Notes under the pieces: model-generated
What the model was told of the DNA's origin: nothing
The model's database searches: none
Seen by the model: the letters and a program-made list of their open reading frames with translations, nothing else
NCBI GenBank assembly: GCA_043803745.1
Contig: JAZDJS010000018.1
Span: forward strand, 1-32,602
Length of the DNA: 32,602 bases
Direction: 5' to 3'
DNA from: an archaeon
GTDB taxonomy: Archaea > SpSt-1190 > DYHY01
Translations under genes and position numbers: made by a program
Part shown: positions 1,643 through 23,182 of the stretch, piece after piece
Layout of the letters: each line of letters opens with the position of its first letter
How positions within the stretch are numbered: the stretch's first letter is position 1

Positions 1643-1765
1643 TTTTCAACTTGGGCTGAAAAACCGCTCGGTTTAATAAGCATTCCTCAAAACGGGTTCC
1701 GAGCGCACTGAAAGGATTGAAAGGGGTCCTCCGATTTGGTCTTGTTTTATGCCTCTTTTCCAATA

Positions 1766-1788
1766 AGTATTATAAATTCGTTAATACT
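1766..1788 (+). promoter_or_regulatory. TATA box (TTATAAA) embedded in an inverted repeat AGTATTA-N9-TAATACT; candidate autoregulatory operator
   Basis: AT-rich box about 25 nt upstream of ATG 1798; perfect 7-bp arms at 1766-1772 and 1782-1788. Confidence 0.55.
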
Positions 1789-1797
1789 GGTTCCATC

Positions 1798-2715
1798 ATG
1801 ATTTTAATAGTTGAAAAAACCGGAAACAAATACGTGGCAGCCGAGGGAAAACTCGTTACGCCCGCGGCGTTCTCGGTTTTGCTGAACCCCCTGCGGCTGA
1901 AAATACTTTCCGAAATCGCGGGCAAGCCGGCATATCCATCAGAAATCGCCGGGAAAATGCGGCTGCCCGAACAGAAGGTTTTCTACCACATCAACCAGCT
2001 TAGGAAAGGGGGCTTTGTCGAGATTGAACGGCGGGAGGAGCGTCGGGGGGGTCTTGCGAAATATTTCCGGGCAACCGGCAAGGCTTTCGCGCTCAAGCTC
2101 CCGAACGCGGAGGAATTCGACCTCCCGGTTTCCCTGCCCAATGCAACGAGCATCCCGAAGTTCCTTTCCGGCTTTGTCACAAGGGGCGGCGAGTTTGACG
2201 GGCTCGTTGTCGTCGGCTCGCCCGATGCCCACGGCCCGAACAAGGCAAGAGCCCGCGACGGGCACTATGCAACTGACCTGGCCGGATTTGTCGGAAGCAT
2301 TGCGCGGATATTTTCCCCCGTTGTGCGGACTGACACCGAGATAAAGGAAAGCGAGCGGAAAAGGAACCTGATTCTCGTCGGGGGGCCGATAACAAACATG
2401 CTTGTAGGAGAGGTTAACGGGTCCCTGCGCTTGCGTTTTGACGGGGATCACAACTGGGACATCTATTCCGAAAAATCCGGCAAGTTCTATTCAGAGGAGG
2501 AGTGCGGGATTATCGCAAGCGCGAAAAGCCCTTGGAACCCCGACGCGCGGATTGTGGTGATTGCCGGAAAGCGCTTTTCCGGGACCCGCTCCTCAATACT
2601 CGCAATCCTTTCCGGCGGGGAGAAATTCTCTTCCGCAGGGAACCTTGTTGTCGAGGGAACTGACCTTGACGGGGACGGGATTGTTGACTCCGCTGAAATC
2701 AAGGAGTCGTTCTGA
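1798..2715 (+). CDS. ArsR-type winged-HTH regulator fused to an S-layer-C-terminal-like alpha/beta domain ending in a DxDxDG loop
   Basis: LNPLRLKILSEI...PAYPSEIA...EQKVFYHINQLRKGGFVEI is an ArsR-like HTH. The C-terminal domain has NLILVGGPITN and IVVIAG..FSGT and ends DLDGDGIVDSAE. ATG 1798 chosen over TTG 1717 from the TATA position. Confidence 0.8.
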   Translation: MILIVEKTGNKYVAAEGKLVTPAAFSVLLNPLRLKILSEIAGKPAYPSEIAGKMRLPEQKVFYHINQLRKGGFVEIERREERRGGLAKYFRATGKAFALKLPNAEEFDLPVSLPNATSIPKFLSGFVTRGGEFDGLVVVGSPDAHGPNKARARDGHYATDLAGFVGSIARIFSPVVRTDTEIKESERKRNLILVGGPITNMLVGEVNGSLRLRFDGDHNWDIYSEKSGKFYSEEECGIIASAKSPWNPDARIVVIAGKRFSGTRSSILAILSGGEKFSSAGNLVVEGTDLDGDGIVDSAEIKESF

Positions 2716-3030
2716 ATAGGCGAGGAAATCCGGCTGAGCCGGGTTGATGCAAGCGAAATAAAAGAGGCGTTCTAGCCAAAAGTCGCTTGCGAAATCTGGA
2801 GCGGAGCGAAAGGTCGACGCGGCAGAGATTAAGGAGTCTTTTTGAGTCTGCTGCGGAGATCTGGAGCGGTTGAGGCAGAGGCATTACCAACGAAATCCGG
2901 AGCCAATGTTTGATGTAGGCGGCGGAAGCGAAAGGTTGATGCGGTGGAAGTGAAAGAGGCATTTTGAAACTGCGGACGGGGACTCCGGCGAATCTGAGCT
3001 GCTGCCGGCGAAATCAAGGAAGCCTTCTGG
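2668..3030 (+). repeat. Array of degenerate direct copies of the upstream gene's last ~11 codons
   Basis: Gene end 2683-2715 reads VDSAEIKESF*. Copies: 2743-2775 VDASEIKEAF*, 2813-2845 VDAAEIKESF*, 2935-2967 VDAVEVKEAF*. Partial copies: 2975-2992 (DGDSGE) and 3007-3030 (GEIKEAFW). Confidence 0.85.
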
Positions 3031-3036
3031 AAAGAA

Positions 3037-3390
3037 CTAGAAGAGTTCCTGCAGTTCCTTGCCCCATTTCGCGCCGGCGACGATGAGGATTGCCCCGAGA
3101 CCGAAGAACCCGAGGGAAACGTACCGGAGTATCCCGGTAGGCTTGACAAGGCTCGAAATTGCCTCGTAAATCCCGATAAGGACGAGACCGACATATATTG
3201 AGGAGAATGCGAACGCAAGGGTTATCAGGAAGGTTTCCTTCTTCGAAAGGACGAGATACCGCTCCGAAACCGTAATCCGCTTGAGTATGTTCTCGGCAAG
3301 GCCCTTCAGCCCCCAGGCATATACCAGAAGGATTAGTATTGTCGCGATGAACGCCGGATCCCTCAAAAGCTCCTCTGAAAATGAGACCAT
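3037..3390 (-). CDS. Small hypothetical membrane protein (about 3 TM segments)
   Basis: From ATG 3390 (MVSFSEELLRDP...), with three hydrophobic stretches; no recognised family. Confidence 0.7.
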   Translation of the reverse strand: MVSFSEELLRDPAFIATILILLVYAWGLKGLAENILKRITVSERYLVLSKKETFLITLAFAFSSIYVGLVLIGIYEAISSLVKPTGILRYVSLGFFGLGAILIVAGAKWGKELQELF

Positions 3391-3470
3391 TCTGCCAAGG
3401 AGAGGGGGTTCTTGATTAAAAGGTTTCCGGGGGAGAAAAAGATAAATCTGGGCCGGGACCCAGGAGCGCC

Positions 3471-3806
3471 ATGCCAATACTGAAACTCGTGAAGGGGAGC
3501 CGGGAAGCCAAGTTCCTCCATTTGCTTGACCTGAGGAACATGAAGGTGATATTCAGCAAGGACAGAACTGGCGTGCGGGTCGAGGTTTGCGAGACGAAGG
3601 ACAAACCGCCTTACATTGCAACCCTGAAATTCTCATTTTACATAAGCGAGACCGAATATTCAAAGATAGCGAAGAAGCATCAGGGAATAATGCAGAAAAT
3701 GATGCAGGACCTTTCAAACCTTTCAAGGACGATTGAGAAGCTCTACAACAGCAAGAGGAAGTCGGAAATCCAAGATGGCAATGGCGAAGAGAAAAAAGGC
3801 AGGTAG
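3471..3806 (+). CDS. Hypothetical protein, 111 aa
   Basis: ATG start preceded by GGAG; protein-like composition; divergent from the 3390 gene; overlaps the ferredoxin start. Confidence 0.6.
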   Translation: MPILKLVKGSREAKFLHLLDLRNMKVIFSKDRTGVRVEVCETKDKPPYIATLKFSFYISETEYSKIAKKHQGIMQKMMQDLSNLSRTIEKLYNSKRKSEIQDGNGEEKKGR

Positions 3807-4041
3807 GATCGAACCCCGGGCGGGACTGAAAGCAAGGTTCGTGATAAGGCAGGTCGTCCGGGAATGCATTGGCTGCGGGGCTTGCGCGGCGGTTTCACGA
3901 AATTGGAAGGTGAAGGGGGAAAAGTTCATTCCGAGGGAATCCGTCCTTGGCAAGCTCGGGAAGAACCTCGAGGCAGCGGAAGTCTGCCCCGTCACCTGCA
4001 TACACATAATTGACAAATTGAAAAAGAAGAGGCTTGCCTAG
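3775..4041 (+). CDS. Monocluster ferredoxin with a basic N-terminal extension
   Basis: ECIGCGAC (CxxCxxC) plus distal EAAEVCPVTCIHI; start at ATG 3775 or 3781. Confidence 0.85.
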   Translation: MAMAKRKKAGRIEPRAGLKARFVIRQVVRECIGCGACAAVSRNWKVKGEKFIPRESVLGKLGKNLEAAEVCPVTCIHIIDKLKKKRLA

Positions 4042-4051
4042 ACCCGGGAAA

Positions 4052-4651
4052 ATGCAGAGGCAGAAGGATCTTTTCGGCAGGGGGGCAAGACGGAGCTTCA
4101 AGTTCGCCAAGGCATTTTCCCCGAAAAAGCGAACTGGAAGCGCAGGGGAGGACCGGATTGCCGCCTTTCTCTCGGAAAAGGGGGTTTCCTTCAAGAGGCA
4201 CGGGATAATCTCCCGGACGGCAAGGCTTTCTGAGAAGGAGAAATCGGCCCTGATAATACGAAGCTGCCCCAGGGAAACGTTCGCGCTTCTCTCAAGGGAG
4301 TTCTCGCTTGAAAAAATCCATCCGGAACTCTTCAGATACGACTTTCTTGTGGAAGGTTTCCGGGAGGGCACTAAGAGGGCGGTTGTCTGTATCGAATATC
4401 TCGGGCTCTACAGGCCGGCTGCACGGGTTGACAAAAAGTCCTTCCGCAGGAGGCATGTCAGGCAGGTTGCGTTCTACACCTTCTTCAAGACGCCCCTGAA
4501 GCGGGAGGTCTACCGGCGCGCTGGAATCGAAATCGTGGAGATACTTCCCGGAGAGCTTGAGAATCTCGAGTCGATTCTGGCGCCCGTTCTGGATGCGCTC
4601 TCGCAGGAGAAAGCTACCCTTTCCGGCTGGCTCTCTTCGTCTTTCCCCTAG
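4052..4651 (+). CDS. Putative restriction-endonuclease-like (PD-(D/E)xK / Vsr-DUF559-like) protein
   Basis: Motif order SAGEDRIAAFL..KGVSF ... RYDFLV ... CIEYLGL ... KREVYRRAGIEIVEI resembles these nuclease domains. ATG 4052 follows the ferredoxin stop. Confidence 0.55.
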   Translation: MQRQKDLFGRGARRSFKFAKAFSPKKRTGSAGEDRIAAFLSEKGVSFKRHGIISRTARLSEKEKSALIIRSCPRETFALLSREFSLEKIHPELFRYDFLVEGFREGTKRAVVCIEYLGLYRPAARVDKKSFRRRHVRQVAFYTFFKTPLKREVYRRAGIEIVEILPGELENLESILAPVLDALSQEKATLSGWLSSSFP

Positions 4652-5267
4652 AAAACTCCATATAGGAAAAGATTAGGACTCCGGCAAGCGCGGGGATTGT
4701 CAGGACAATAGAGAGGAAGAAGAGGAAATCCGAAAAGATTCCGGCAAGGGCTGCGGCTGAGAACGCGAGGAAAACCTTCCCGGCAAGCGCGTTTGCATTC
4801 TTCCAGGTTGCGTCGCTCTCAAGGGTCCAAGGGGTCCGGACTCCGACAAAGTAGTTCCTGCGGGTTTTCGGCAAAAGTATCCCGAGGGAAGCGAAAAGGA
4901 CCGAGAACAGGGGGGCGAGTATTTTGGAAATCCCTATTTGGATTCCGAGCGCATGGGCAAGGACAAACGAATGGACTCCGAGGAAAAAGAGGGCGAAGGC
5001 TGCCTGGAATATTTGGTATTCCCTTGCGAAAAAGGGGTAGTTTTCCCTCAGGGGGTCGAGTTTCGGAAGGAGCTGGAAAAGGGCGAGGAGGAACGCGAGG
5101 AAAAGGGGGAGTAGGGCGGCGCCGAAAAGCTTGCCCGAATAGCCGTCGGGCTCACCGGAAAAGCCCCAGTGCGTTGCGACTTTCTCGGGAAGCCGGTCAT
5201 ATGCGAGCGCGGAAATCAGGATTGAAGCAGCAAGAAAGAGGAAGGCAATCTTCCGGAAAAGTCCCAT
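4614..5267 (-). CDS. SdpI-family membrane protein (DUF1648 + SdpI/YhfL domains)
   Basis: LPEKVATHWGFSGEPDGY (DUF1648 motif) and RNYFVGVRTPWTLESDATWKNAN (SdpI signature); about 6 TM segments. Confidence 0.88.
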   Translation of the reverse strand: MGLFRKIAFLFLAASILISALAYDRLPEKVATHWGFSGEPDGYSGKLFGAALLPLFLAFLLALFQLLPKLDPLRENYPFFAREYQIFQAAFALFFLGVHSFVLAHALGIQIGISKILAPLFSVLFASLGILLPKTRRNYFVGVRTPWTLESDATWKNANALAGKVFLAFSAAALAGIFSDFLFFLSIVLTIPALAGVLIFSYMEFSRGKTKRASRKG

Positions 5268-5287
5268 CCGAATCCTCTGCGCAATCC

Positions 5288-5298
5288 TTTTTTAAATA
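5288..5298. promoter_or_regulatory. Central AT tract, probable shared TATA element of divergent SdpI and Nudix genes
   Basis: TTTTTTAAATA in a 52-nt divergent spacer, about 21 nt from each start codon. Confidence 0.5.
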
Positions 5299-5319
5299 GG
5301 AATCGGGTCCTGCCGGAAA

Positions 5320-6279
5320 ATGGCTGAACCGGGCGAGAACGCAACCCTTGTTTTCGTTGTGCAAAGCGGAAAGATTCTTCTGATACGGAAAAAGAGGGGA
5401 ATCGGCGCGGGAAAATACAACGGGGTCGGCGGGCGGATTGAGCCGGGGGAAACCCCGGAGGAATGCGCGCGGAGGGAAGTGAAAGAGGAGCTCGGGCTGG
5501 TTCTTTCGGAAGCCGAACTGAAAAGGCAGGGCTTGCTCCGCTTTTCCCGGGGGCGCGACCCGTTCATGGATGTGTGGGTTTTCCGGGCGGACTCGTTCTC
5601 CGGAAGCCCTTGCGAAACCGATGAGGCAATCCCGTTCTGGTTCGAAACCGGGAAGATGCCGTTCGACGAGATGTGGGCTGGCGACCGCTTCTGGCTCCCT
5701 TTGCTGATTTCTGGGAAGAGGTTCCTCGGGAAATTCTCCTTCGACGAGAGCATGGAAAAACTCGTTTCGAAGGAAGTTGTGGAGCTTCCGGGCCGGGAGG
5801 AAACGAAAATCGTGACAAATGCGCTCCTTGTTGACGAAAAAGGACGGACGCTCCTCATTGAGCGCAGGGGAACCGAGCTCGGGAAGGGCAAGCTCGTTTT
5901 CCCGGGGGGGAAGGTTGAGCCGGGGGAATCGGTTCGTGATGCGGCGGCAAGGGAGCTTCTTGAGGAAACCGGAATATCCTCCCCGCCCGAAAGCCAGGAA
6001 CTTTTGGGACGGAACTGGTTCATTTTTCGGGGGAAGCTTTCAATGGAATCCTTCGTTTTCAGGTCGGATGTCTTCTCCGGAAGCGCCCGGGAAACTGAAG
6101 CGGGAATTCCCGGCTGGTTCCCGGGGGAATCGCTCCCGTACGAGCGGATGTGGGCTGATGCCCGGCACTATGCCGACCTCGCCCTTTCCGGAAGAAGGTT
6201 CGAATGCGTTTTCATCTACGACAATCCGAAGACCAACGTTCTTGAAAAGGCAGAGGTTTTCATTCTCCCGTCTTCTTAA
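5320..6279 (+). CDS. Tandem two-domain Nudix hydrolase (MTH1/8-oxo-dGTP diphosphatase-like)
   Basis: Two complete Nudix boxes, GGRIEPGETPEECARREVKEELG and GGKVEPGESVRDAAARELLEETG, followed by MTH1-like PFDEMWAGDRFW and PYERMWADARHY. Confidence 0.9.
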   Translation: MAEPGENATLVFVVQSGKILLIRKKRGIGAGKYNGVGGRIEPGETPEECARREVKEELGLVLSEAELKRQGLLRFSRGRDPFMDVWVFRADSFSGSPCETDEAIPFWFETGKMPFDEMWAGDRFWLPLLISGKRFLGKFSFDESMEKLVSKEVVELPGREETKIVTNALLVDEKGRTLLIERRGTELGKGKLVFPGGKVEPGESVRDAAARELLEETGISSPPESQELLGRNWFIFRGKLSMESFVFRSDVFSGSARETEAGIPGWFPGESLPYERMWADARHYADLALSGRRFECVFIYDNPKTNVLEKAEVFILPSS

Positions 6280-7033
6280 GCTTCTTCGAATTGGCAAGGA
6301 CAATCAGGTTCGCCCGTCCCCGCTTGTATTTCCTCACAAGCCCGCGGGCTTCAAGCTCCGAAAGAAGGAGGCTTGCCTTTGCTTCCGAATAGGGCATTTC
6401 CCGTCTCAGCTCGCGTTGGATGATTCTCCCTCCTGCAGCTGAAATTTTTTCAAGTATTTCCGCAAGCTCCGGATCGAGATTCTTTTTCGGTGTTTGGACG
6501 GGACGCGCCGCAAGCTCCCGCGAAGTCGCCTTCTTTCTTCCGGCAGCCGGCTTTTTCCGAAGGAACCTGAAATAAATGTAAAAGGCCCCCCCTGCGCCAG
6601 CTCCAATCAGCAAAGGGATAATGAAGAGGTTTGGAGTTGCCTGTCTTGGAACTATCTGGATGTCGATGGACGGCGACTGCTCCTCGTCAAGGTTCCCTCC
6701 CGAGGGAACCGCGGGAAAGAGGATGAAATCAATCCGGTAAGGGCTCCCGTCGTCAAGGACCTTGATTGTCGAAGAATCCTCGAGGAGTTTCTCGGCGCCC
6801 CGGAAGCTTTCCGCCTTCAAAAGGTAGATTCCCTCAGGAACGAAGAAGGAGTATTTTCCGCTTTCCGAAACAAGGGTCTGCTCCGGGGTCGTGTTTATTG
6901 AAAAGACGACCGGACTTGCGAGGGAAAGGTCCTCCCAGCTGTAGGCGCCCCCGGAAATTTCGGCTGAAAAGACGGAGGCGGACAGCAGAAGAATCAGGAG
7001 AAAGGCTGCCGGAAGTGCGACAGGAATCTTCAT
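6260..7033 (-). CDS. Membrane-anchored winged-HTH regulator (COG2512-like)
   Basis: N-terminal signal peptide, beta-rich extracytoplasmic region, one TM (LFIIPLLIGAGAGGAFYIYF), then GGRIIQRELRREMPYSEAKASLLLSELEARGLVRKYKRGRANLI (wHTH). Confidence 0.8.
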   Translation of the reverse strand: MKIPVALPAAFLLILLLSASVFSAEISGGAYSWEDLSLASPVVFSINTTPEQTLVSESGKYSFFVPEGIYLLKAESFRGAEKLLEDSSTIKVLDDGSPYRIDFILFPAVPSGGNLDEEQSPSIDIQIVPRQATPNLFIIPLLIGAGAGGAFYIYFRFLRKKPAAGRKKATSRELAARPVQTPKKNLDPELAEILEKISAAGGRIIQRELRREMPYSEAKASLLLSELEARGLVRKYKRGRANLIVLANSKKLKKTGE

Positions 7034-7060
7034 TCCTGGATTGCCCGTAAACTGGGGATA

Positions 7061-7081
7061 TAAAGCTTTAGGTGAAGCTTC
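7061..7081. promoter_or_regulatory. Tandem AAGCTT-centred palindromes in a divergent promoter; candidate operator
   Basis: TAAAGCTTTA (7061-7070) and GAAGCTTC (7074-7081), cores 12 bp apart, overlapping GATATAAA. Confidence 0.35.
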
Positions 7082-7120
7082 GTAAAGTGTCTACTTAAGG
7101 TTCTGCAGCGGGCCCGGGTT

Positions 7121-8020
7121 ATGGCAAAAACAAAAGGAACCAAGGCGCCTTTCGCATCAATCGTCATTGTTTTGGCGGTTATTGCAATTGTCGCATTGGG
7201 AACCCTTTCCCCGGCGTTTTCAGTCCCAGGAGGGAACTTGAAGAATTTCCGGGAAAGGGCGAAGGAACAGTATGGGGCTGCCTTTGGAAAGTACAAGGCG
7301 GCTGTCAACGAGTACAAGGACGCGCGCCAGGGGTTCTTCCAAGCAAGGGAGAATTTCCTCAAGGCAAGGCGGCTCGGCGGACGAAACGCGAGCGAGACTG
7401 ACGTTCTCGCGGCAGCGAAACGCTACATGGCAACTTCGTCTGACCACCTGGTGACGCTGATAGAACATGTCGAGAACGAGGTCGGGATATTGACGTCGGT
7501 AAACGCAACTGATGCGCCCGGACTTGAGCAGCTGCAGGAGAACTGGCTCAACCAGCTTGAAGCTACAAAGGCTAATGTTACGGCAATAAGGTCGAGGATT
7601 GAAAACGCAACTGAAAAGCAGGAGATTGTCTCTGCCGCAAATGAACTTGGCCAGGTTTGGAAGGTTGTAACGGAGCTTTCCCAGAAAATCTACTACCTTG
7701 CACGGGTTGAAAGGGGAGTCGCCCTCTACAGGAGAATTTCCCTCGTAGAGGCGCGGATTGGAAACAGGACGAGTGAGCTTGCCGCAAACGGGACGTTTGA
7801 TGCCTCGGAGATTGAAGCTGAGCTTGAGCAAGTCAAGCTTGCTCTTTCCGGTGCGCAGGGCAGTTTCGTCGAAGCGAGGACCTACTTCGGAGAAGGCCAA
7901 AGGGAGGCGGGCAAGGCTAAGATGTCCGAGTCCCACGACTTCCTGAGGGATGCGCTCGCAAGCCTGAGGCGTGCATATGCAAGCTACAGGGATGCCGCCG
8001 GGAATGAGGACGGTGCCTAA
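7121..8020 (+). CDS. Secreted or membrane-anchored alpha-helical (coiled-coil) protein
   Basis: Basic N-terminus and hydrophobic helix (IVIVLAVIAIVALG), then a long A/E/K/R-rich helical region with several N-x-S/T sequons (NAS, NAT, NVT, NRT, NGT). Confidence 0.75.
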   Translation: MAKTKGTKAPFASIVIVLAVIAIVALGTLSPAFSVPGGNLKNFRERAKEQYGAAFGKYKAAVNEYKDARQGFFQARENFLKARRLGGRNASETDVLAAAKRYMATSSDHLVTLIEHVENEVGILTSVNATDAPGLEQLQENWLNQLEATKANVTAIRSRIENATEKQEIVSAANELGQVWKVVTELSQKIYYLARVERGVALYRRISLVEARIGNRTSELAANGTFDASEIEAELEQVKLALSGAQGSFVEARTYFGEGQREAGKAKMSESHDFLRDALASLRRAYASYRDAAGNEDGA

Positions 8021-8022
8021 GA

Positions 8023-8253
8023 ATGGCAGCCAAACGAGTTGCGGCCGTTCTCTTCGCAATGCTCCTTGCGGGAATCGTGCTTTTGGCGGGATGCGTTTCC
8101 GGCCGGGTTGCTGCTCCGGGATCCGGGACGGGAACCGTTTCCGACGAAATTTCCGTACTGGATTCGGAGCTCGCCTCCCTTGAAGGGGATTCCCTCCTCG
8201 GCGCGGGGGACGACCCTTCCGGAAGTTTCGACTCCGACATACTCGGGTCTTAG
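8023..8253 (+). CDS. Small acidic lipoprotein
   Basis: Signal peptide ending in lipobox LAGC; D/S/G-rich tail; starts 2 nt after the upstream stop. Confidence 0.75.
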   Translation: MAAKRVAAVLFAMLLAGIVLLAGCVSGRVAAPGSGTGTVSDEISVLDSELASLEGDSLLGAGDDPSGSFDSDILGS

Positions 8254-8257
8254 GGAG

Positions 8258-8283
8258 CTTCTTTTCTTTTTCTCTTTCTTTTT
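8258..8283 (+). terminator. Oligo-pyrimidine (T-rich) archaeal-type terminator
   Basis: CTTCTTTTCTTTTTCTCTTTCTTTTT immediately after the lipoprotein stop. Confidence 0.6.
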
Positions 8284-8328
8284 CCGGAAAAATCGAAAAG
8301 AACTTTAAACCTCCGCGGATTTTCATTG

Positions 8329-9414
8329 ATGATGCGGGAAAAAAAGGATGCTGACCCTCAAAGAAAGGGGGAAAATTTCGGGGACGGCTTCTCGGACGGA
8401 TTTGTTCCCCTGAAATCGCTTGATCTTTCGAAATGCAAGACGATTGACGACATTGTCAGGGGAATGTCCCTCACTGCGTTCGGGGGGCGCGAAGTTGGCG
8501 AGGCTGCCGACGCCCTTGAGAAGATGGTGCGCGACAAGTCCTGCTTCCGGGTCCTGACCCTTTCCGGGGCAATGACCGTTGCTAAAATGGGCCTCGTGAT
8601 CTGCGACATGATTGACTGCGGAATGGTTGACGCGGTCGTGTCAACGGGCGCCCTGATGGCCCACGGGTTCATCGAGGCTGCCGGGATGGCGCATTTCAAG
8701 TACGATTCCCACAAGATGGCCGATGAGGAGCTCTATCAGAAGGGCTATGACCGGGTATATGACACTCTTGAACTTGAAAGCAACCTTGACGGAGCGGAGA
8801 ACATCATCAGGGCAATCTATAGGACCCTCCCCCAAGGAGAGGAAACCTGCAGCTGGAAAATAAACCGGCTGTTCGGAAAATTCCTTTCTCAGAACACGAA
8901 AAGAAGCGAACGGGGAGTCCTCAAGTCAGCTTACCTGAACGATGTCCCCGTCTACATTCCGGCGTTCACGGATTCCGAGTTCGGCCTCGACTTTGGGATT
9001 TATCGGAGGCGGATGAAGCTCGACGGAAAGCCGCCGGCGAAATTCAATCCGTTCCACGATCTTGAAGATTACACCGCGCGGGTGAAGGCTGCCAAAAGGC
9101 TGGGGATATTCACGATTGGAGGAGGGGTCCCGAGGAACTGGGCGCAGCAGGTCGGGCCGTACCTCGACATAATAAACACCCGGATTGGCGAGGGCGGAGC
9201 GTTCAAGCGGTTCCATTATGCTGTAAGGATTTGTCCGGAACCCGCCCACTGGGGGGGCCTTTCCGGCTGCACATATTCGGAAGGGGTTTCCTGGGGAAAG
9301 TTCGTCCCGGTTAGCGAGGGCGGAGTCCAGGTTGAAGTCCACTCTGACGCGACAATTGCCTGGCCTTTCATTGTGAAGGCTGTGATGGAGCGGCTGGAGC
9401 GCAGGAAAATATGA
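8329..9414 (+). CDS. Deoxyhypusine synthase-family protein
   Basis: Motifs VVSTGA, YIPAFTDSEFG, IGGGVPRNW, GGLSGCTYSEGVSWGK (catalytic Lys in SWGK) and VHSDATIAWP; TTTAAA about 20 nt upstream. Confidence 0.92.
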   Translation: MMREKKDADPQRKGENFGDGFSDGFVPLKSLDLSKCKTIDDIVRGMSLTAFGGREVGEAADALEKMVRDKSCFRVLTLSGAMTVAKMGLVICDMIDCGMVDAVVSTGALMAHGFIEAAGMAHFKYDSHKMADEELYQKGYDRVYDTLELESNLDGAENIIRAIYRTLPQGEETCSWKINRLFGKFLSQNTKRSERGVLKSAYLNDVPVYIPAFTDSEFGLDFGIYRRRMKLDGKPPAKFNPFHDLEDYTARVKAAKRLGIFTIGGGVPRNWAQQVGPYLDIINTRIGEGGAFKRFHYAVRICPEPAHWGGLSGCTYSEGVSWGKFVPVSEGGVQVEVHSDATIAWPFIVKAVMERLERRKI

Positions 9415-9500
9415 GGGTGGTGCCTCCCGCGCGGAAGGAGGAATTGACAAGTCCTCTTCAGGGGGCTGTGATGGAGCTGCTGGAGCGCAGGAAAAAATGA
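9378..9500 (+). repeat. 37-nt direct repeat of the DHS 3' end including its stop codon
   Basis: 9378-9414 GGCTGTGATGGAGCGGCTGGAGCGCAGGAAAATATGA vs 9464-9500 GGCTGTGATGGAGCTGCTGGAGCGCAGGAAAAAATGA; 35/37 identical. Confidence 0.92.
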
Positions 9501-10357
9501 GAAAGATTGGAATTGTCGGCCTTGGAATAATGGGGCGCGGGATTGCGGAGAATTTTCTTGGGAAAAATCACCATGTTTTTGTCTGGAACCGAACGACAAG
9601 CGTTTCGGAGGAGTTCGGAAAGAGGGGCGCGATTGTCTGCTCAAGCCCGGAAAAAGTTGCAAAGAGCGCCGACATTGTCTTTGAAGTTACCGCAAACGAC
9701 GAATCCTCGCGGGAGGTTTGGCTTGGGAACGAAGGAATTATTGCGGGGGCGAACCCCGACAAGTTCCTGGTTGCCTGTGCAACTCTTTCCTCCGGCTGGG
9801 TTGACGCGCTTGCACAAGAGTGCAAAAGCCGGGGTTTTGTTTTCTTTGATGCGGCGCTGACCGGGGGGCGGATTGGGGCGGAAACTGGAAGCCTCACGCT
9901 TCTCTGCGGCGGCGATGAAAAGCTGCTTGATGAACTAAGGCCGGACCTTTCGGCAATTTCCAAAGGCGTCCTTCACTTCGGGCCGGCCGGGCAGGGGATG
10001 CGCTACAAGCTGATTTTGAATTTCCTCCAGGCAACCCACATGGCCGGATTCAACCAGGCAATGAAAATTGCCAAATCTCAGGGAATGGATTTGAAAAAGG
10101 TTTCCGATGCCCTGGTCGAGAGGCCTGGCGGGGTAATCACATCTATTGCAAAGAAGGCGTATTTCACGGAGCCCGACCCGGCGACTTTTTCGGTTGAGTG
10201 GCTTGCAAAGGACCTGGGATATGTGAGGGAAATGGCCGGGCATTCCGGCGGGCCGCTTCTTGACGCAGTCTTCGACGAATGCAGCAAAGCCGTCAAGGCC
10301 GGACTTGGGAAAAAGGACTGGGCAATGATCGGAAGGTCCCCTGCTGACGGAGAATGA
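9497..10357 (+). CDS. NAD(P)-dependent beta-hydroxyacid dehydrogenase (3-hydroxyisobutyrate dehydrogenase family)
   Basis: KIGIVGLGIMG Rossmann motif, VWNRT, FDAALTGG (DAPVSGG-like) and GQGMRYKLILN with the catalytic Lys. Confidence 0.9.
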   Translation: MRKIGIVGLGIMGRGIAENFLGKNHHVFVWNRTTSVSEEFGKRGAIVCSSPEKVAKSADIVFEVTANDESSREVWLGNEGIIAGANPDKFLVACATLSSGWVDALAQECKSRGFVFFDAALTGGRIGAETGSLTLLCGGDEKLLDELRPDLSAISKGVLHFGPAGQGMRYKLILNFLQATHMAGFNQAMKIAKSQGMDLKKVSDALVERPGGVITSIAKKAYFTEPDPATFSVEWLAKDLGYVREMAGHSGGPLLDAVFDECSKAVKAGLGKKDWAMIGRSPADGE

Positions 10358-10360
10358 ATT

Positions 10361-11644
10361 TCACTCGGTTTTTCCGGCCGGCGCAAGCTTGCAGGCTTCC
10401 TTCACGATTCTGAACGCCCCGGAAAGGTTCGGATTCTTCGTCAGCGCGCTCTTCTGCATCCGCTCGAGGTCGTCCTCATATATCGCAAGCTCCTCAACAG
10501 GGTCGAGGGGGATGTCCCAGAGGGAGTGGACGACGCGGCCCCGCTTCTCGAGTATTGCGGTCGCGATGTTCATTTCCTCATGATATCCGATCGGAGGCAG
10601 GGAATAAATCGGGGCGGGATAGAACGAAAGCTCGCTCGGCTTCGTTATCAGCGCGTCGCAGTCCCGGATCTCCTCGGCAAGCCCGGCTATTGCATCGAGC
10701 CTGCTGGAGTTTTTCACTATTCTTATCCCATCGGGGCATCCAAGGGATTCGAGCTTCTTCGCAGCCTCGAAATGGTGCCCTACATAGAACACTATTTCCG
10801 GCCTCTTCCCGGAATACTTTGTATACGAGGAGAGGAGCTTTTCCATCTGGGGGAGCTGCGCGCCTGCGCCCCCCATTGCAACGACATAGCGGGGGGTTTC
10901 GCGCGCCGTTTCTTCGGGACCCCAGGGGGCGCCCCGTATTGAATCGGGGCTTATTGGCTGGCCGGTGATCTTGACCATTTTCAGCGACCTGTCCGATGGA
11001 ACCCCGTAAACGGAGAGGGCACGGATTACGTCCTGCGCGCATTTCTCGGAGCCCACGAAATAATTCCCGGTTTCCTTCCGGACAAAGCTAGGATAGACTG
11101 CGTCGTCAAGGGGGATTATCGCAAAGCGGTTCGCATACTGCGGGTATTTGTAGAAAATGTCGCCGGGGACGAAATGGAACGAGAGGACAACCCCCTCGAG
11201 ATGGGTCTTCAGGCGGGAAATCTCGACGAGCTTCCTCGTTATTATGGACATCGTGTCAAGGCGGGAATTTTCAGCCATTTCCCGTGATGCCTCGTTCCAG
11301 CTGTATTGGAAGAAAAGCGCGCGGGAAAGGGTTTCGTAAAGGTCGCGGGCGGCCCATTCAACGAGACGGGCGCCTATCCCGGAAAGGAGAGCTGGAGCGT
11401 AAATTAGCTTCGGGACTATTTGCTCGCTTTCCGAAAGAAGCTTCCGCCTGTGGAGTTCCGCATTGGTTATTTCGGCAGCCCGCGCAACGGCTGAAGCGCC
11501 CCGGTAGTGCCCGTTGCCCGCAAGAAGATAGAGACAGTTGATTATTAGTTTCCCCTTCGGGGATGCCTTGACCGAATTCGCGATTTCCTGAAGCTCTTCG
11601 TCCGTGAGAAAATCAGAAAAGACGAACGAGAATTTCCCGGCCAT
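10361..11644 (-). CDS. GT-B fold glycosyltransferase, MGDG synthase/UgtP-like
   Basis: AGNGHYRGA, VVAMGGAGA, LITKPSELSF and PIGYHEEMN match GT28-type motif order; start at 11644 inferred from the TATA position. Confidence 0.72.
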   Translation of the reverse strand: MAGKFSFVFSDFLTDEELQEIANSVKASPKGKLIINCLYLLAGNGHYRGASAVARAAEITNAELHRRKLLSESEQIVPKLIYAPALLSGIGARLVEWAARDLYETLSRALFFQYSWNEASREMAENSRLDTMSIITRKLVEISRLKTHLEGVVLSFHFVPGDIFYKYPQYANRFAIIPLDDAVYPSFVRKETGNYFVGSEKCAQDVIRALSVYGVPSDRSLKMVKITGQPISPDSIRGAPWGPEETARETPRYVVAMGGAGAQLPQMEKLLSSYTKYSGKRPEIVFYVGHHFEAAKKLESLGCPDGIRIVKNSSRLDAIAGLAEEIRDCDALITKPSELSFYPAPIYSLPPIGYHEEMNIATAILEKRGRVVHSLWDIPLDPVEELAIYEDDLERMQKSALTKNPNLSGAFRIVKEACKLAPAGKTE

Positions 11645-11663
11645 TGCATGGACTTGGCGCATG

Positions 11664-11672
11664 TTTTTTATA
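11664..11672. promoter_or_regulatory. Probable bidirectional TATA element
   Basis: TTTTTTATA tract in a 50-nt divergent spacer, about 20 nt from ATG 11644 (-) and about 22 nt from ATG 11695 (+). Confidence 0.5.
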
Positions 11673-11694
11673 ACCTTATTGTCCCCGGCATTCA

Positions 11695-11967
11695 ATGCAT
11701 TCCTTTGAGGGCGCATTTTTGGACGCCGAGTTTTCGGAATTCCTGAATGCGATTGAGGCGGACGACCGGGAAAGTGCGCTCCAATTCATCCGGGGTTTCC
11801 GGGAACTTCTTGAGAAAAGGGACCCGCTCGACCGGGATGAAACGCTTGACTGGCTTTCGGAAAAGGTCGGGAAAATAGCCGACAAACTCGTTTTCTCGAA
11901 AGTTGTCGATTTCCTCGTTGAGAACGATTTGGTTGACAAGGGAAAACCTCCTGCAAAAAGTATTTAA
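11695..11967 (+). CDS. Small acidic helical hypothetical protein, 90 aa
   Basis: ATG start, amphipathic helical pattern, fills the gap between neighbours. Confidence 0.7.
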   Translation: MHSFEGAFLDAEFSEFLNAIEADDRESALQFIRGFRELLEKRDPLDRDETLDWLSEKVGKIADKLVFSKVVDFLVENDLVDKGKPPAKSI

Positions 11968-11991
11968 TACTTGAAAGTGAGTAATTGTTTG

Positions 11992-12909
11992 ATGAATTGC
12001 ATTGCATCAGACACCCTTTCTCCGCTTCTTAGGCCGGGCTCTCTTGAGATTCTCGGGCGCGCCGCCCTGGCAGCGGAGGAAGTTTATCCTGAACTCGTCC
12101 TCCTTTTCGGGGAAGCTGGGTCGGACAAGCCCGCACCCTCGGTTGTTTTCTTCGACAGGAAGGAGCCGGGGATGCTCGTCGCATATGGGCGGGAGCTCTC
12201 TCCGAACGCAATTGAAAGCATGCGGGGAAAGAGGAACACCCTGAAGGCAGACGCATCCGAAGCTGAGCGGGCAATGTACGTACCTCTGGGAATCCCAGGG
12301 GAAAGCTATGAGACTGTCCTTGCTGCTGTCTGCGTCGAAGCAAGCCATCTTGCGGCGGCTCCGAGGCATCCTTCGCTTCCGCTTGCAATTGCGGGAGTAC
12401 CGTCGGAACGAGGAACCCTCGGGGAAGTTGCGAACGGGCTTTTTCTTTTTGCGCGGGAGAATTATGCCGGTTTCGTGAGAATACCTCCGAACGAGCTTTT
12501 CGAGGGGATTGGAAAGGGCTATCTTTCTTCAGTCAGAGGAGTCCAATTCAAAAGGGGGCTAGCGAACAGGCTCTACCCGGTTTTGCGCGGGATTTCGCGG
12601 GCAGCCGATTCGACTGAAACGGAACGGCTGGTTGCCCAGGGAAGGGAACTGATTCTTGCCGAATCGGAAAGCCTTGTTGGCGAAACTTTCATTTCAAGGG
12701 CTGCCTGCGAGGCGCCCCGCGAAAACCATCCGAACGTTGCTGCGGCTGTCGAAAGCTTGGCAAGGCATCTTCCGGTCCAGGCGGGGCTTCTCCTATATGA
12801 GCGGGCAGAAGCTGGCTCTCCCGGGGATTTCGGGAAAATTTACGGGGCTTTCCTTGCGAACGCCGAAGCCCCGGAGATAATCCGGCTGGTTATGAAGACT
12901 CCGTATTGA
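11992..12909 (+). CDS. Hypothetical protein with a degenerate zincin-like motif
   Basis: Long ORF; ATG 11992 lies about 25 nt after TATTTAATA; AAVCVEASHLAA and NELFEGIG motifs. Confidence 0.65.
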   Translation: MNCIASDTLSPLLRPGSLEILGRAALAAEEVYPELVLLFGEAGSDKPAPSVVFFDRKEPGMLVAYGRELSPNAIESMRGKRNTLKADASEAERAMYVPLGIPGESYETVLAAVCVEASHLAAAPRHPSLPLAIAGVPSERGTLGEVANGLFLFARENYAGFVRIPPNELFEGIGKGYLSSVRGVQFKRGLANRLYPVLRGISRAADSTETERLVAQGRELILAESESLVGETFISRAACEAPRENHPNVAAAVESLARHLPVQAGLLLYERAEAGSPGDFGKIYGAFLANAEAPEIIRLVMKTPY

Positions 12910-12920
12910 CGGCGGCTTAG

Positions 12921-12952
12921 AAAAAAATAAGAAACATTTCCGAAAAACAAAA
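12921..12952 (-). terminator. T-rich terminator for the rps10 transcript
   Basis: Minus strand reads TTTTGTTTTT...TTTCTTATTTTTTT downstream of rps10. Confidence 0.5.
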
Positions 12953-12964
12953 CAGCCGGAAAGG

Positions 12965-13005
12965 ACTTGCTTTGCAAATCTCAATCTCGATGTTCTGACT
13001 CCCCC
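12965..13005 (-). repeat. Degenerate copy of the rps10 3' end
   Basis: Aligns to 13043-13082 with about 32 matches in 42 columns; NIEIE is preserved through synonymous changes. Confidence 0.75.
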
Positions 13006-13040
13006 TTGTCCAGCTCCGGCTGGACCTCGGGAATTCCTAA

Positions 13041-13355
13041 TTACTTCGCTTCGCGAAGTTCTATCTCTATGTTGACTCCCTCGGGCACGTGCAGCCTCAT
13101 TATCTGCCGCATTGCCCGGTCGTCAACGCCAAGGTCGACAAGCCTCTTGTGGACGCGCATTTCCCAGCGCTCCCAGGTCATCGTGCCCTCCCCGTCCGGC
13201 GACTTGAGCGTCGTGATCTTAAGCTTCTTCGTCGGGAGGGGGACCGGACCGGAAACCTTCACTCCGGTCTTGAGGGCAATCTCCTTTATTTGAGAGCCAA
13301 TGCTGTCAAGAACCTTCGAATCGGCGCCGGACAGCTTGATTCTCGCTTTTTGCAT
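13041..13355 (-). CDS. rps10: 30S ribosomal protein S10 (uS10)
   Basis: KARIKLSG...[15 protein letters not shown]...[22 protein letters not shown]. Confidence 0.98.
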
Positions 13356-23140: not shown

Positions 23141-23182
23141 GGGTTCCCGATGGGTTCCCGATGGGTTCCCGATGGGTTCCCG
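23141..23182. repeat. Perfect 11-bp tandem repeat (GGGTTCCCGAT) x3.8 adjoining the rps12 TATA box
   Basis: Units start at 23141, 23152, 23163 and 23174 (partial); minus-strand TTAAAAA at 23134-23140. Confidence 0.95.

Follow-up and report, generated by a model that had tools for sequence, protein, structure and literature searches.

Why should three unrelated genes on one archaeal contig, encoding an ArsR-type regulator, deoxyhypusine synthase (DHS), and ribosomal protein S10 (rps10), each be followed by a direct copy of their own end? The contig (C18), hereafter called the window, was analyzed over its whole length of 32,602 nt and belongs to a metagenome-assembled genome (MAG), G000, of 1.23 Mb on 51 contigs (90% complete, 54% G+C). 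These copies, here termed echoes, had been noticed in a preliminary description of the window, and all three loci were confirmed. Echoes occur in excess over chance, show one polarity, recur at orthologous genes, and are restricted to one order, and known recombinases are lacking. The explanation that we tentatively favor is recurrent insertion at transcript 3′ ends with duplication of the terminal segment.

The nearest named relatives of the DHS protein are found in MAGs of Micrarchaeota, Iainarchaeum, and Woesearchaeota, which suggests that G000 is a DPANN-type archaeon. Related genomes used for comparison belong to the same genus (G001), the same family (G003), the same order (G004), and another family of the class (G005), together with a distant archaeon (G019) and two separate metagenome contig records (L085 and L086) that hold an orthologue of the ArsR-type gene.

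Echo loci in the window

The DHS gene (8326-9414, forward strand; Pfam DS, E = 6e-74) terminates in the gene-proximal copy of the repeated segment (9378-9415; AVMERLERRKI and stop). This copy is followed on the same strand by a 48-nt spacer (9416-9463), which has hairpin-like and GGAGG-rich stretches and is unique in the genome by blastn, and then by the echo (9464-9501; AVMELLERRKK and stop), which aligns with 36 of 38 positions identical. The gene of an NAD-binding dehydrogenase (9497-10357, forward strand; Pfam NAD_binding_2 and NAD_binding_11) starts inside the echo, such that the TGA of the echo overlaps the ATG of the dehydrogenase gene (ATGA); the stop that DHS uses today is 86 nt farther upstream. 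The overlap indicates that DHS originally ended at the echo and that the two genes overlapped before being pulled apart, with the copy in use lying upstream.

On the reverse strand, rps10 (13041-13355; Pfam Ribosomal_S10) contains the gene-proximal copy of its end at 13043-13080, followed by a 37-nt spacer (13004-13040) that includes part of an inverted repeat and by a decayed echo (12965-13003), which aligns with 31 of 38 positions identical and two indels and lies 37-39 nt from the gene copy. The inverted repeat has imperfect 18-nt arms (12997-13014 and 13019-13036) that are 72% complementary and 4 nt apart, with a core of 7 bp (GTCCAGC-CGGA-GCTGGAC). In the genome-wide scan described below, the score of this echo (32) was reached by 3 of 11380 shuffled gene/downstream pairs. 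The echo carries AACATCGAGATTGA, which is the allele of the G001 and G003 genes, and the G000 gene itself has AACATAGAGATAGA.

The ArsR-family gene (1717-2715, forward strand; start codon uncertain) matches the helix-turn-helix families HTH_20 and HTH_5 as well as S_layer_C in Pfam, and its product ends in the EF-hand-like sequence DLDGDGIVDSAEIKESF. Behind it lie four copies of the gene tail in differing reading frames, three of which keep the peptide V-D-x-x-E-I/V-K-E-A/S-F and a stop. As read from the sequence and its frames on the forward strand, unit 1 is the functional tail (GIVDSAEIKESF and TGA; 2677-2715), unit 2 (SRVDASEIKEAF and TAG; 2737-2775) has a peptide that matches the gene end in L085, unit 3 (RKVDAAEIKESF and TGA; 2807-2845) lies in another frame, unit 4 (RKVDAVEVKEAF and TGA) occupies 2929-2967, and unit 5 (AGEIKEAFW; 2992-3030) has lost its stop and adjoins the end of a convergent gene (3037-3477). 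The peptide pattern E-I/V-K-E-A/S-F followed by a stop or W has five matches in the six-frame translation of the whole genome, all five of them in this array. Pairwise mismatches among units 1-4 fall on codon positions 1, 2, and 3 in numbers of 13, 8, and 43, the pairs not being independent. The open stretch of the unit at 2807-2845 contains no in-frame ATG, GTG, or TTG, and the same holds by reading frames for the units at 2737-2775 and 2929-2967. The spacers of the array are homologous to each other, and the units are arranged head to tail with both the spacer and the gene-end part repeated.

The end of the ArsR-type protein (2650-2715) resembles an EF-hand loop (DLDGDGIVDSAE) and is conserved in orthologues across the class (DEDGDG.VDSVE). 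The combination of this loop with an S_layer_C match is unusual for a transcription regulator. Tandem Repeats Finder reported none of the three echo loci in the window, because the copies are too diverged or too few.

Echoes of protein-coding genes across the genome

A set of 1156 genes based on open reading frames (ORFs) was called in G000 with a self-trained codon model, and the last 48 nt of each gene were aligned to its own 300 nt downstream for the 1138 genes with enough flanking sequence, with ten shuffled gene/downstream pairings as the control. At a score of at least 30, echoes were found at 12 of the 1138 genes compared to a mean of 0.5 (maximum 2) in the shuffled pairings, and at a score of at least 40 at eight genes compared to none. 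A frequency no higher than in shuffled pairs, which the preliminary description had named as a refuting outcome, was thus not observed. At the threshold of 30, few or no matches were obtained with the reverse complement (0/1138), with mid-gene segments (1/789), or with 5′ ends aligned to the upstream sequence (2/1107). An unbiased survey of the genome identified 108 local direct repeats compared to three in the control; among these, some are intragenic and in frame, some are gene-end echoes, and many are intergenic and located beside tRNA genes, and purely intergenic tandem repeats also occur.

The genes with echoes are unrelated and include those for the thermosome, a T2SSE-type ATPase, SepF, an ATP-grasp protein, RNase J, a TrxB-like reductase, DHS, and S10, among others. 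The repeated block at protein genes spans 16-57 nt and mostly includes the stop codon, in some cases extending up to 23 nt past it. The copies are separated by 35-99 nt in G000 and by 19 nt at the thermosome gene of G001, and no start-bearing ORFs of their own were seen in the spacers at echo loci. Exact or near-exact copies with a unique spacer occur on C11 (43/43) and C50 (48/50). Both the spacer and the gene-end part are repeated in the ArsR array, at the thermosome gene, at C49:66742, at tRNA-Arg, tRNA-Glu, and tRNA-Ala, and at the G001 TrxB gene, whereas DHS, C11, C50, and most of the short-class tRNA echoes described below have no second spacer copy. In 15 of 1133 genes, a downstream repeat was also found for the 48 nt that follow the stop.

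The 32 mismatches in 13 echoes are distributed over codon positions 1, 2, and 3 as 3, 6, and 23, and the codon changes are synonymous in 21 cases and non-synonymous in 9. The excess at third positions (23/32) is significant when compared to an expectation of one third (p = 9e-6) and to 0.46 (p = 0.003), the latter being approximately the third-position share estimated for an echo that decays freely next to a gene copy under selection. The coding-type bias proposed earlier from the window loci thus holds in aggregate. Stop codons are kept in the echoes, with interchange of TGA, TAG, and TAA, and all three are found at gene or echo ends.

Some simple explanations could be rejected. Stop readthrough or an alternative genetic code is ruled out because 11 of the 13 echoes (score ≥ 28) are out of frame with the gene and all three stops are in use. 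Independent small ORFs are ruled out as a general explanation, as 4 of 13 open stretches have no ATG, GTG, or TTG and another 4 have one only at or after the echo start. Whole-unit tandem duplication with subsequent deletion is ruled out at tRNA-Val-GAC and tRNA-Thr-GGT, where the sequence behind the echo is unrelated to the spacer. Inspection by eye also showed that (A/T)TAGG often follows the stop at echo loci (window 2713-2721 and 13033-13043; C50:14531; C48:4491), e.g., TGAATAGGC, TAATTAGGC, and TAATTAGGA.

Echoes of tRNA genes

The last 11-19 nt of 24 of the 38 tRNA genes in G000 are copied 47-208 nt downstream (control, 3.7%), which corresponds to an approximately 60-fold enrichment over protein genes (12/1138). 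The echo is perfect in 19 of the 24 cases and extends as far as the final base of the called tRNA in 16. Among 13-mers taken from tRNA 3′ ends, 22 nearby copies were found on the same strand downstream (31-282 nt), none upstream, and nothing above background farther off, and 13-mers from the middle of tRNAs had no nearby copies.

Two classes of tRNA echo can be distinguished by their start. Long-class echoes start at T-loop position 57, and in front of them there is often a duplicate of the T-stem 5′ strand with TTC and then an insert of 26-40 nt that lies exactly in the T loop, whereas short-class echoes start at the 3′ strand of the T stem. In four genomes combined, CTCRR stands directly 5′ of 16 of 34 short-class echoes, compared to a background of 0.7%, and GGACYTCG is found within 45 nt upstream of 27 of 34 short-class but 7 of 32 long-class echoes. 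The T-loop insert and the upstream motif are two orientations of one hairpin motif, YTGA-stem-loop-stem-GARRTY, which occurs 67 times in G000 compared to 7-13 times in shuffled sequences with a 2-bp stem and 19 compared to 2-4 times with a 3-bp stem, with varying stem sequences. This GA-flanked hairpin adjoins many tRNA echoes. At protein-gene echoes, looser matches were seen by eye at the thermosome gene, on C34, at C49:66742, at DHS, and at rps10 of G003, and these are not claimed as part of the junction. The motif consists of outer pairs, tandem G-A pairs, and a variable inner stem, and it looks strand-specific and similar to a k-turn or GA motif. A looser version of the pattern has 70 intergenic matches compared to 9 in the control, with examples in the window at 2842-2862 and 2870-2898.

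Searches for known RNA families and structures around the echoes were largely negative. A loose fuzzy search for the T-loop insert returned 109 matches, mostly noise. Rfam gave only tRNAs, with chance matches lying on tRNAs, for 18 echo loci at E ≤ 1, and nothing for the window. The folds of seven T-arm echoes with inserts of 26-40 nt had z-scores from +0.4 to -3.8, two of them below -2, and a bulge-helix-bulge, which a tRNA intron at position 56/57 would be expected to form, was not evident in these folds, no dedicated search for it having been made. One paralogous T-arm echo has non-compensated changes.

Native trailer modules are located behind the last echo at tRNA-Pro, tRNA-Thr, and tRNA-Val. 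A trailer module composed of AACCC, a T-rich/A-rich hairpin, and CCGTTSACGGG is present in 17 copies, mostly directly behind tRNA genes or echoes (e.g., C19:3571, C21:22203, C30:11073, C49:69018, C51:12204, and window 32419 on the reverse strand), and is probably a bidirectional terminator. Tetraloop hairpins of the form GTCCTC-NNNN-GAGGAC have 57 matches with up to two mismatches in intergenic regions and echo spacers (e.g., window 32451). At the other end of the tRNA genes, the first 10-24 nt of 13 of 40 are copied 72-190 nt upstream (controls, 2%), e.g., at C16:14187-14260, C19:3620-3692, C21:20085-20157, and C36:7659-7744. The upstream copy often follows a TATA-like box of its own, and hence the promoter and tRNA start appear twice.

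Recurrence in related genomes

Echoes of tRNA ends were detected at 16 of 29 tRNAs in G001 and 13 of 29 in G003 (controls, 5-7%), at 12 of 30 in G004 (control, 8%), and at a single tRNA in G002. In G005 they were not above that genome's own control, and none was found at the 29 tRNAs of G019. These counts rest on 29-30 tRNA loci per genome, and the related genomes are non-independent samples. Among the genomes examined, the tRNA echo is restricted to one order, in which four genomes besides G000 have echoes. The same tRNAs are echoed in four genomes, and where these tRNAs differ between genomes (Phe, Thr-TGT, and Arg-TCG), each echo still matches the end of its own tRNA. The spacers are nearly unalignable between genera (global identity, 0.23-0.72), and the echo of tRNA-Thr-GGT belongs to the long class in G000 and to the short class in G001.

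Protein genes that have an echo in G000 also carry echoes of their own in relatives. In G001, the thermosome gene has an echo (22/22) behind a 19-nt spacer, the T2SSE-type ATPase gene has an echo of 43/43, and the TrxB-like gene is found with three exact copies at a period of 67; in G003, rps10 has its own echo (18/18). The ends of 4 of approximately 33 readable orthologues scored at least 30, compared to none of 110 long open frames in the tRNA-centred loci of the relatives (Fisher's test, p = 0.003, computed with 4/35); the SepF orthologue of G003 was left out of the count. No echo was seen in the relatives read at SepF, the C11 gene, the ATP-grasp gene, or DHS, the 3′ end of the G001 DHS gene not being cleanly readable because of frame breaks. 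At the RNase J locus, there is spacer similarity between G000 and G001 with a possible decayed echo in G001, as judged by eye only. The occurrence of independent, self-matching echoes at the same genes in different genera points to a local hot spot or selection rather than docking of mobile cargo. Downstream of the ATP-grasp orthologue of G001 (L296), intergenic units of approximately 80 nt are repeated head to tail at least twice, and these units do not include the gene end.

Polarity and age of the copies

The distal copy appears to be the older, displaced gene end, as suggested by the ATGA overlap at DHS, the native trailers behind the last tRNA echo, the comparison of L085 with G001, and the resemblance of echoes to the gene ends of relatives. 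The suggestion in the preliminary description that each echo may once have been a functional gene end is supported by this evidence. L085 and L086 are 100% identical over 3216 nt and both contain an array of the ArsR kind, in which the orthologue is followed by two echoes; the G001 orthologue has none. Although L085 and G001 are 91.9% identical, the last 36 nt of the G001 gene align twice in L085, and the last echo in L085 adjoins the convergent neighbor exactly as the gene end does in G001. One 13-codon ORF starting with ATG is present in L085. The tail VDSAEIKE.. is the gene end in G000 and G001 and an echo in L085, whereas VDASEIKEAF with its stop is the gene end in L085 and an echo in G000. 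This trading of tail types is one hint for the earlier suggestion that echoes could be a reservoir for C-terminal swapping.

Besides the rps10 echo, resemblance to relatives is seen in the SepF echo, whose tail TGGAAAGGGTTTGA equals the G001 gene end, and in the ATPase echo, which matches the G003 gene (31/35) better than its own gene (32/41). In SepF, seven synonymous differences lie within the last six codons and the stop, and none lies in the preceding 35 nt. Where the differences in diverged echoes are purely synonymous, as in SepF, one copy may later have been replaced by, or derived from, the functional allele of another lineage. Exact echoes with unique spacers (C11, C50, and the cases in G001 and G003) indicate that events have been recent and that a diverged donor was not needed.

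Spacers and candidate enzymes

Comparison of 13 spacers with the genome by blastn found all of them unique except for shared modules of 17-51 nt, which are short hairpin or terminator modules. For example, 51 nt of the C11 spacer (C11:3718-3768) recur at 96% identity on C42 (C42:16411-16461), in a module that lies beside tRNA-Leu and is related to the trailer module described above. Duplications have no fixed length: those of tRNAs span 11-19 nt and those of protein genes 16-57 nt, a 15-nt alignment artefact being left out. The preliminary description had envisaged the loci as docking sites for small accessory cassettes, and this idea is not supported, as the spacers are 19-99 nt long, free of genes, and locus-specific apart from the short shared hairpin or terminator modules.

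Profile searches of the 90% complete G000 genome for tyrosine and serine recombinases and reverse transcriptases (Phage_integrase PF00589, Resolvase PF00239, and RVT_1) gave no match, and neither did those for Y1_Tnp (PF01797), the TnpB zinc ribbon (PF07282), and Cas1 (PF01867), whereas control genomes matched each profile; DDE and other transposases were not searched. The enzyme acting in trans that had been proposed earlier therefore has no counterpart among these families in G000. A Phage_integrase (XerA-type) match is absent from G000 and present in four of four archaeal control genomes. A model of integrative cassettes agrees with the polarity of the copies, but it does not agree with spacers that are so small, carry no cargo, and differ from locus to locus, or with the lack of recombinases.

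RNase Z, RNase P RNA, and the archaeal CCA enzyme were found in all five genomes of the order, which suggests that ordinary tRNA processing is in place, leaving no gap that would call for an echo device. The RNase P RNA matches in G000 (C19:54361-54715, 355 nt) and G001 (C8:15619-15922, 304 nt) are longer than those in G002-G004 (251-259 nt); both are below the Rfam gathering score and may carry insertions.

Comparison with known systems

No description of short-range 3′-end echoes was found in the full-text literature, a search that did not cover subscription journals and supplements. Williams is said to have described, in 2002, a class of tRNA attachment sites extending from the T loop to the 3′ end. 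The attL and attR copies produced by integrases are likewise direct repeats of a terminal gene segment, and they too set an intact gene opposite a displaced partial copy. Partial tRNA copies flank integrated elements of 9-23 kb in Thermococcaceae (PMC9897764), and tandem integrations at tRNAs push older elements outward in Prochlorococcus (10.1101/2020.12.28.424599). However, the known repeats flank integrase-bearing elements of 9-23 kb or larger at few tRNAs per genome, whereas the echoes surround gene-free, locus-specific spacers of 19-99 nt at 24 of 38 tRNAs in a genome where no integrase or resolvase was found.

The target-site duplications of transposons, miniature inverted-repeat transposable elements, and casposons, and the repeat duplication by Cas1, also place a duplicated target around an insert, with the left copy in the upstream context and the right copy in the downstream context. 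The echoes differ in that the length of the duplication is not fixed (11-57 nt), the inserts are not a repeated family, and no Y1 transposase, TnpB, or Cas1 was found, other transposase families not having been searched. Polymorphic toxin genes (CdiA, Rhs) have orphan C-terminal modules stacked downstream, which are whole toxin domains with immunity genes. As in those systems, displaced alternative ends lie behind a functional gene, short homology could allow swapping, and ArsR tails do swap between genomes. However, the echoes comprise only 4-19 codons without ORFs and occur at unrelated housekeeping genes and tRNAs.

Archaeal C/D box small RNA (sRNA) genes overlap gene 3′ ends in Pyrobaculum (PMC6009581), and they resemble the echoes as small RNA motifs with G-A pairs at gene 3′ ends, in sense or antisense, with a guide-like segment 5′ of CUGA. 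In contrast, the echoes have no C box (RUGAUGA) by eye, no C′/D′ pair, and no Rfam match, and their only CUGA-type motif is antisense. Moreover, an echo copies the end of the neighboring gene itself and not a modification site in rRNA or tRNA, and the accessible part of the Pyrobaculum paper describes no duplication of gene ends (PMC6009581).

Origin of the echoes

We put at roughly 0.37 the probability that the echoes arise through repeated insertion at the 3′ ends of transcripts, with duplication of the terminal segment, and are later reshaped by unequal crossover and homologous exchange. An intergenic-type block of 19-99 nt, rich in hairpins and T-tracts, would land inside the last 11-57 nt of a gene, such that the terminal segment stands on both sides of the block. 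The upstream copy, joined to the gene, would remain under selection, and the downstream copy, which is the former end joined to the old trailer or neighbor, would decay. The event may take place in the termination zone of genes with heavy transcription (tRNAs, rps10, and thermosome), where either a staggered break would be repaired or replication would switch its template, with breakpoints at hairpins such as the tRNA T-loop and the GA-flanked motif that adjoins many tRNA echoes. Unequal crossover between copies could then build or collapse arrays (ArsR, tRNA-Arg, tRNA-Glu, and G001 TrxB), and homologous exchange with diverged relatives, or gene conversion, could overwrite one copy, which would leave almost exclusively synonymous differences and keep the stop codons. 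Insertion of this kind would explain the polarity of the copies, the exactness of the young ones, and the existence of arrays, as well as the sharp breakpoints in tRNAs, the spacers that resemble filler, and the absence of recombinases.

Several points weigh against this explanation. The break, the template switch, and the enzyme are postulates, and the junctions inspected by eye showed no evident microhomology. Most spacers are unique in the genome and have no traced source. The strict GA-hairpin pattern is not enriched at protein-gene echoes (2/13 compared to 114/1125 other genes). High expression is guessed from what the genes are called, and DHS, SepF, ATP-grasp, and RNase J are not obviously highly expressed. 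The clustered synonymous differences in SepF require an extra recombination step, and perfect echoes beside unalignable spacers fit selection or gene conversion equally well. Insertion alone explains neither the persistence of perfect echoes next to fast-diverging spacers nor the repeated involvement of the same genes across genera, and these two features, together with the conserved junction motif, keep alive an interpretation of the echoes as functional RNA.

According to that interpretation, the echo and the GA-flanked hairpin would be kept by selection as an RNA element, either an antisense small RNA, in which 11-19 nt complementary to the 3′ end of the neighboring tRNA or mRNA stand guide-like 5′ of a CUGA-type hairpin, or a cis signal for 3′-end formation. 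We regard this as a possibility, though a doubtful one. It is consistent with echoes that track their own tRNA ends in four genomes across nearly unalignable spacers, with the perfection of 19 of 24 tRNA echoes in G000, with the conserved junction of short-class echoes (CTCRR and GGACYTCG), with the over-representation of the YTGA...GARRTY hairpin in spite of its varied stems, and with recurrence at orthologous protein genes. However, protein-gene echoes diverge at third positions and keep interchanging stops, which is a signature of coding and not of base pairing; the echo class differs between orthologous tRNAs within a genus (Thr-GGT); and one paralogous T-arm echo has non-compensated changes. 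The lack of an Rfam match or a C box, the T-arm folds without a bulge-helix-bulge and with only two of seven z-scores below -2, and the presence of RNase Z, RNase P RNA, and the CCA enzyme, by which no processing gap remains, argue in the same direction. It seems unlikely that echo and hairpin together form a device matched gene by gene, that is, a small antisense RNA or cis element carrying the exact 3′ end of its target. Such an element would co-evolve with the target and be used for 3′-end recognition (processing, protection, modification, or quality control), and whenever it happened to recombine with the gene end, C-termini would be swapped as well.

Two further explanations are, in our estimate, improbable to the same degree and still somewhat more so than the matched device. 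A site-specific recombinase acting in trans, encoded by a virus or a plasmid or by the host of this symbiont, might integrate small elements that bring a replacement gene end, with the displaced ends piling up downstream. The extent from T loop to 3′ end equals what is reported for T-loop-class attachment sites, the repeat ends are sharp, with 16 of 24 tRNA echoes running to the last tRNA base, and diverged copies look like functional alleles of other lineages. The newest copy is also gene-proximal with older ones pushed downstream, as described for the tandem integrations (10.1101/2020.12.28.424599) and for the partial tRNA copies (PMC9897764). Yet the spacers of 19-99 nt hold no cargo or recombinase remnants, the distances are tightly bounded, and the spacers are locus-specific rather than a family; G000 has no match to PF00589 or PF00239; repeats range in length from 11 to 57 nt; the enzyme would need to target 24 of 38 tRNAs as well as unrelated protein genes; and the many exact copies require near-identical donors. 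Neutral tandem duplication with unequal crossover in intergenic DNA would instead make echoes a survivorship effect, duplications being tolerated if they begin within the last codons of a gene but not elsewhere in genes. The 108 local repeats compared to three, including purely intergenic and in-frame intragenic ones, the repetition of post-stop sequence in 15 of 1133 genes, and several true head-to-tail arrays with a repeated spacer agree with this, whereas the many echoes that lack a second spacer copy (DHS, C11, C50, and most short-class tRNA echoes), the approximately 60-fold enrichment at tRNAs, the sharp recurrent tRNA breakpoints with their junction motif, the recurrence at orthologues, and a synonymous bias beyond neutral decay in place (p = 0.003 compared to 0.46) do not. 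An assembly artefact, in which gene-end variants from different strains were falsely placed one behind the other, might be suspected in a MAG of 51 contigs that is 90% complete and has some echoes that look like allelic variants. It is very improbable, because echoes occur in five assemblies (G000, G001, G003, and G004, and at one tRNA in G002) and identical arrays occur in two metagenome contig records. The unique spacers between the copies, the boundaries exactly at tRNA ends, and the functional start of the next gene carried by the DHS echo also speak against it.

Outside the echo loci, a perfect 11-nt tandem repeat (GGGTTCCCGAT, 3.8 copies) lies between two reverse-strand genes in the window (23141-23182).

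Implications

With either insertion or function as the explanation, partial copies of tRNAs and gene ends will confuse gene callers, tRNA counts, and island finders based on attachment sites. If the echoes are functional, they would constitute a new class of target-matched RNA elements beside most tRNA genes of an uncultured archaeal order, and if they are matched to their targets gene by gene, an RNA-guided system specific to this DPANN order. If recurrent insertion with terminal duplication is correct, these genomes would record a frequent small rearrangement at transcript ends, of which no description was found in the literature covered, and would offer a natural read-out of archaeal chromosome breaks or template switches. 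The rearrangement would then also be a source of new C-termini, of new 3′ untranslated regions, and of uncoupled operon genes, as at DHS, where an ATGA overlap would have been pulled apart.

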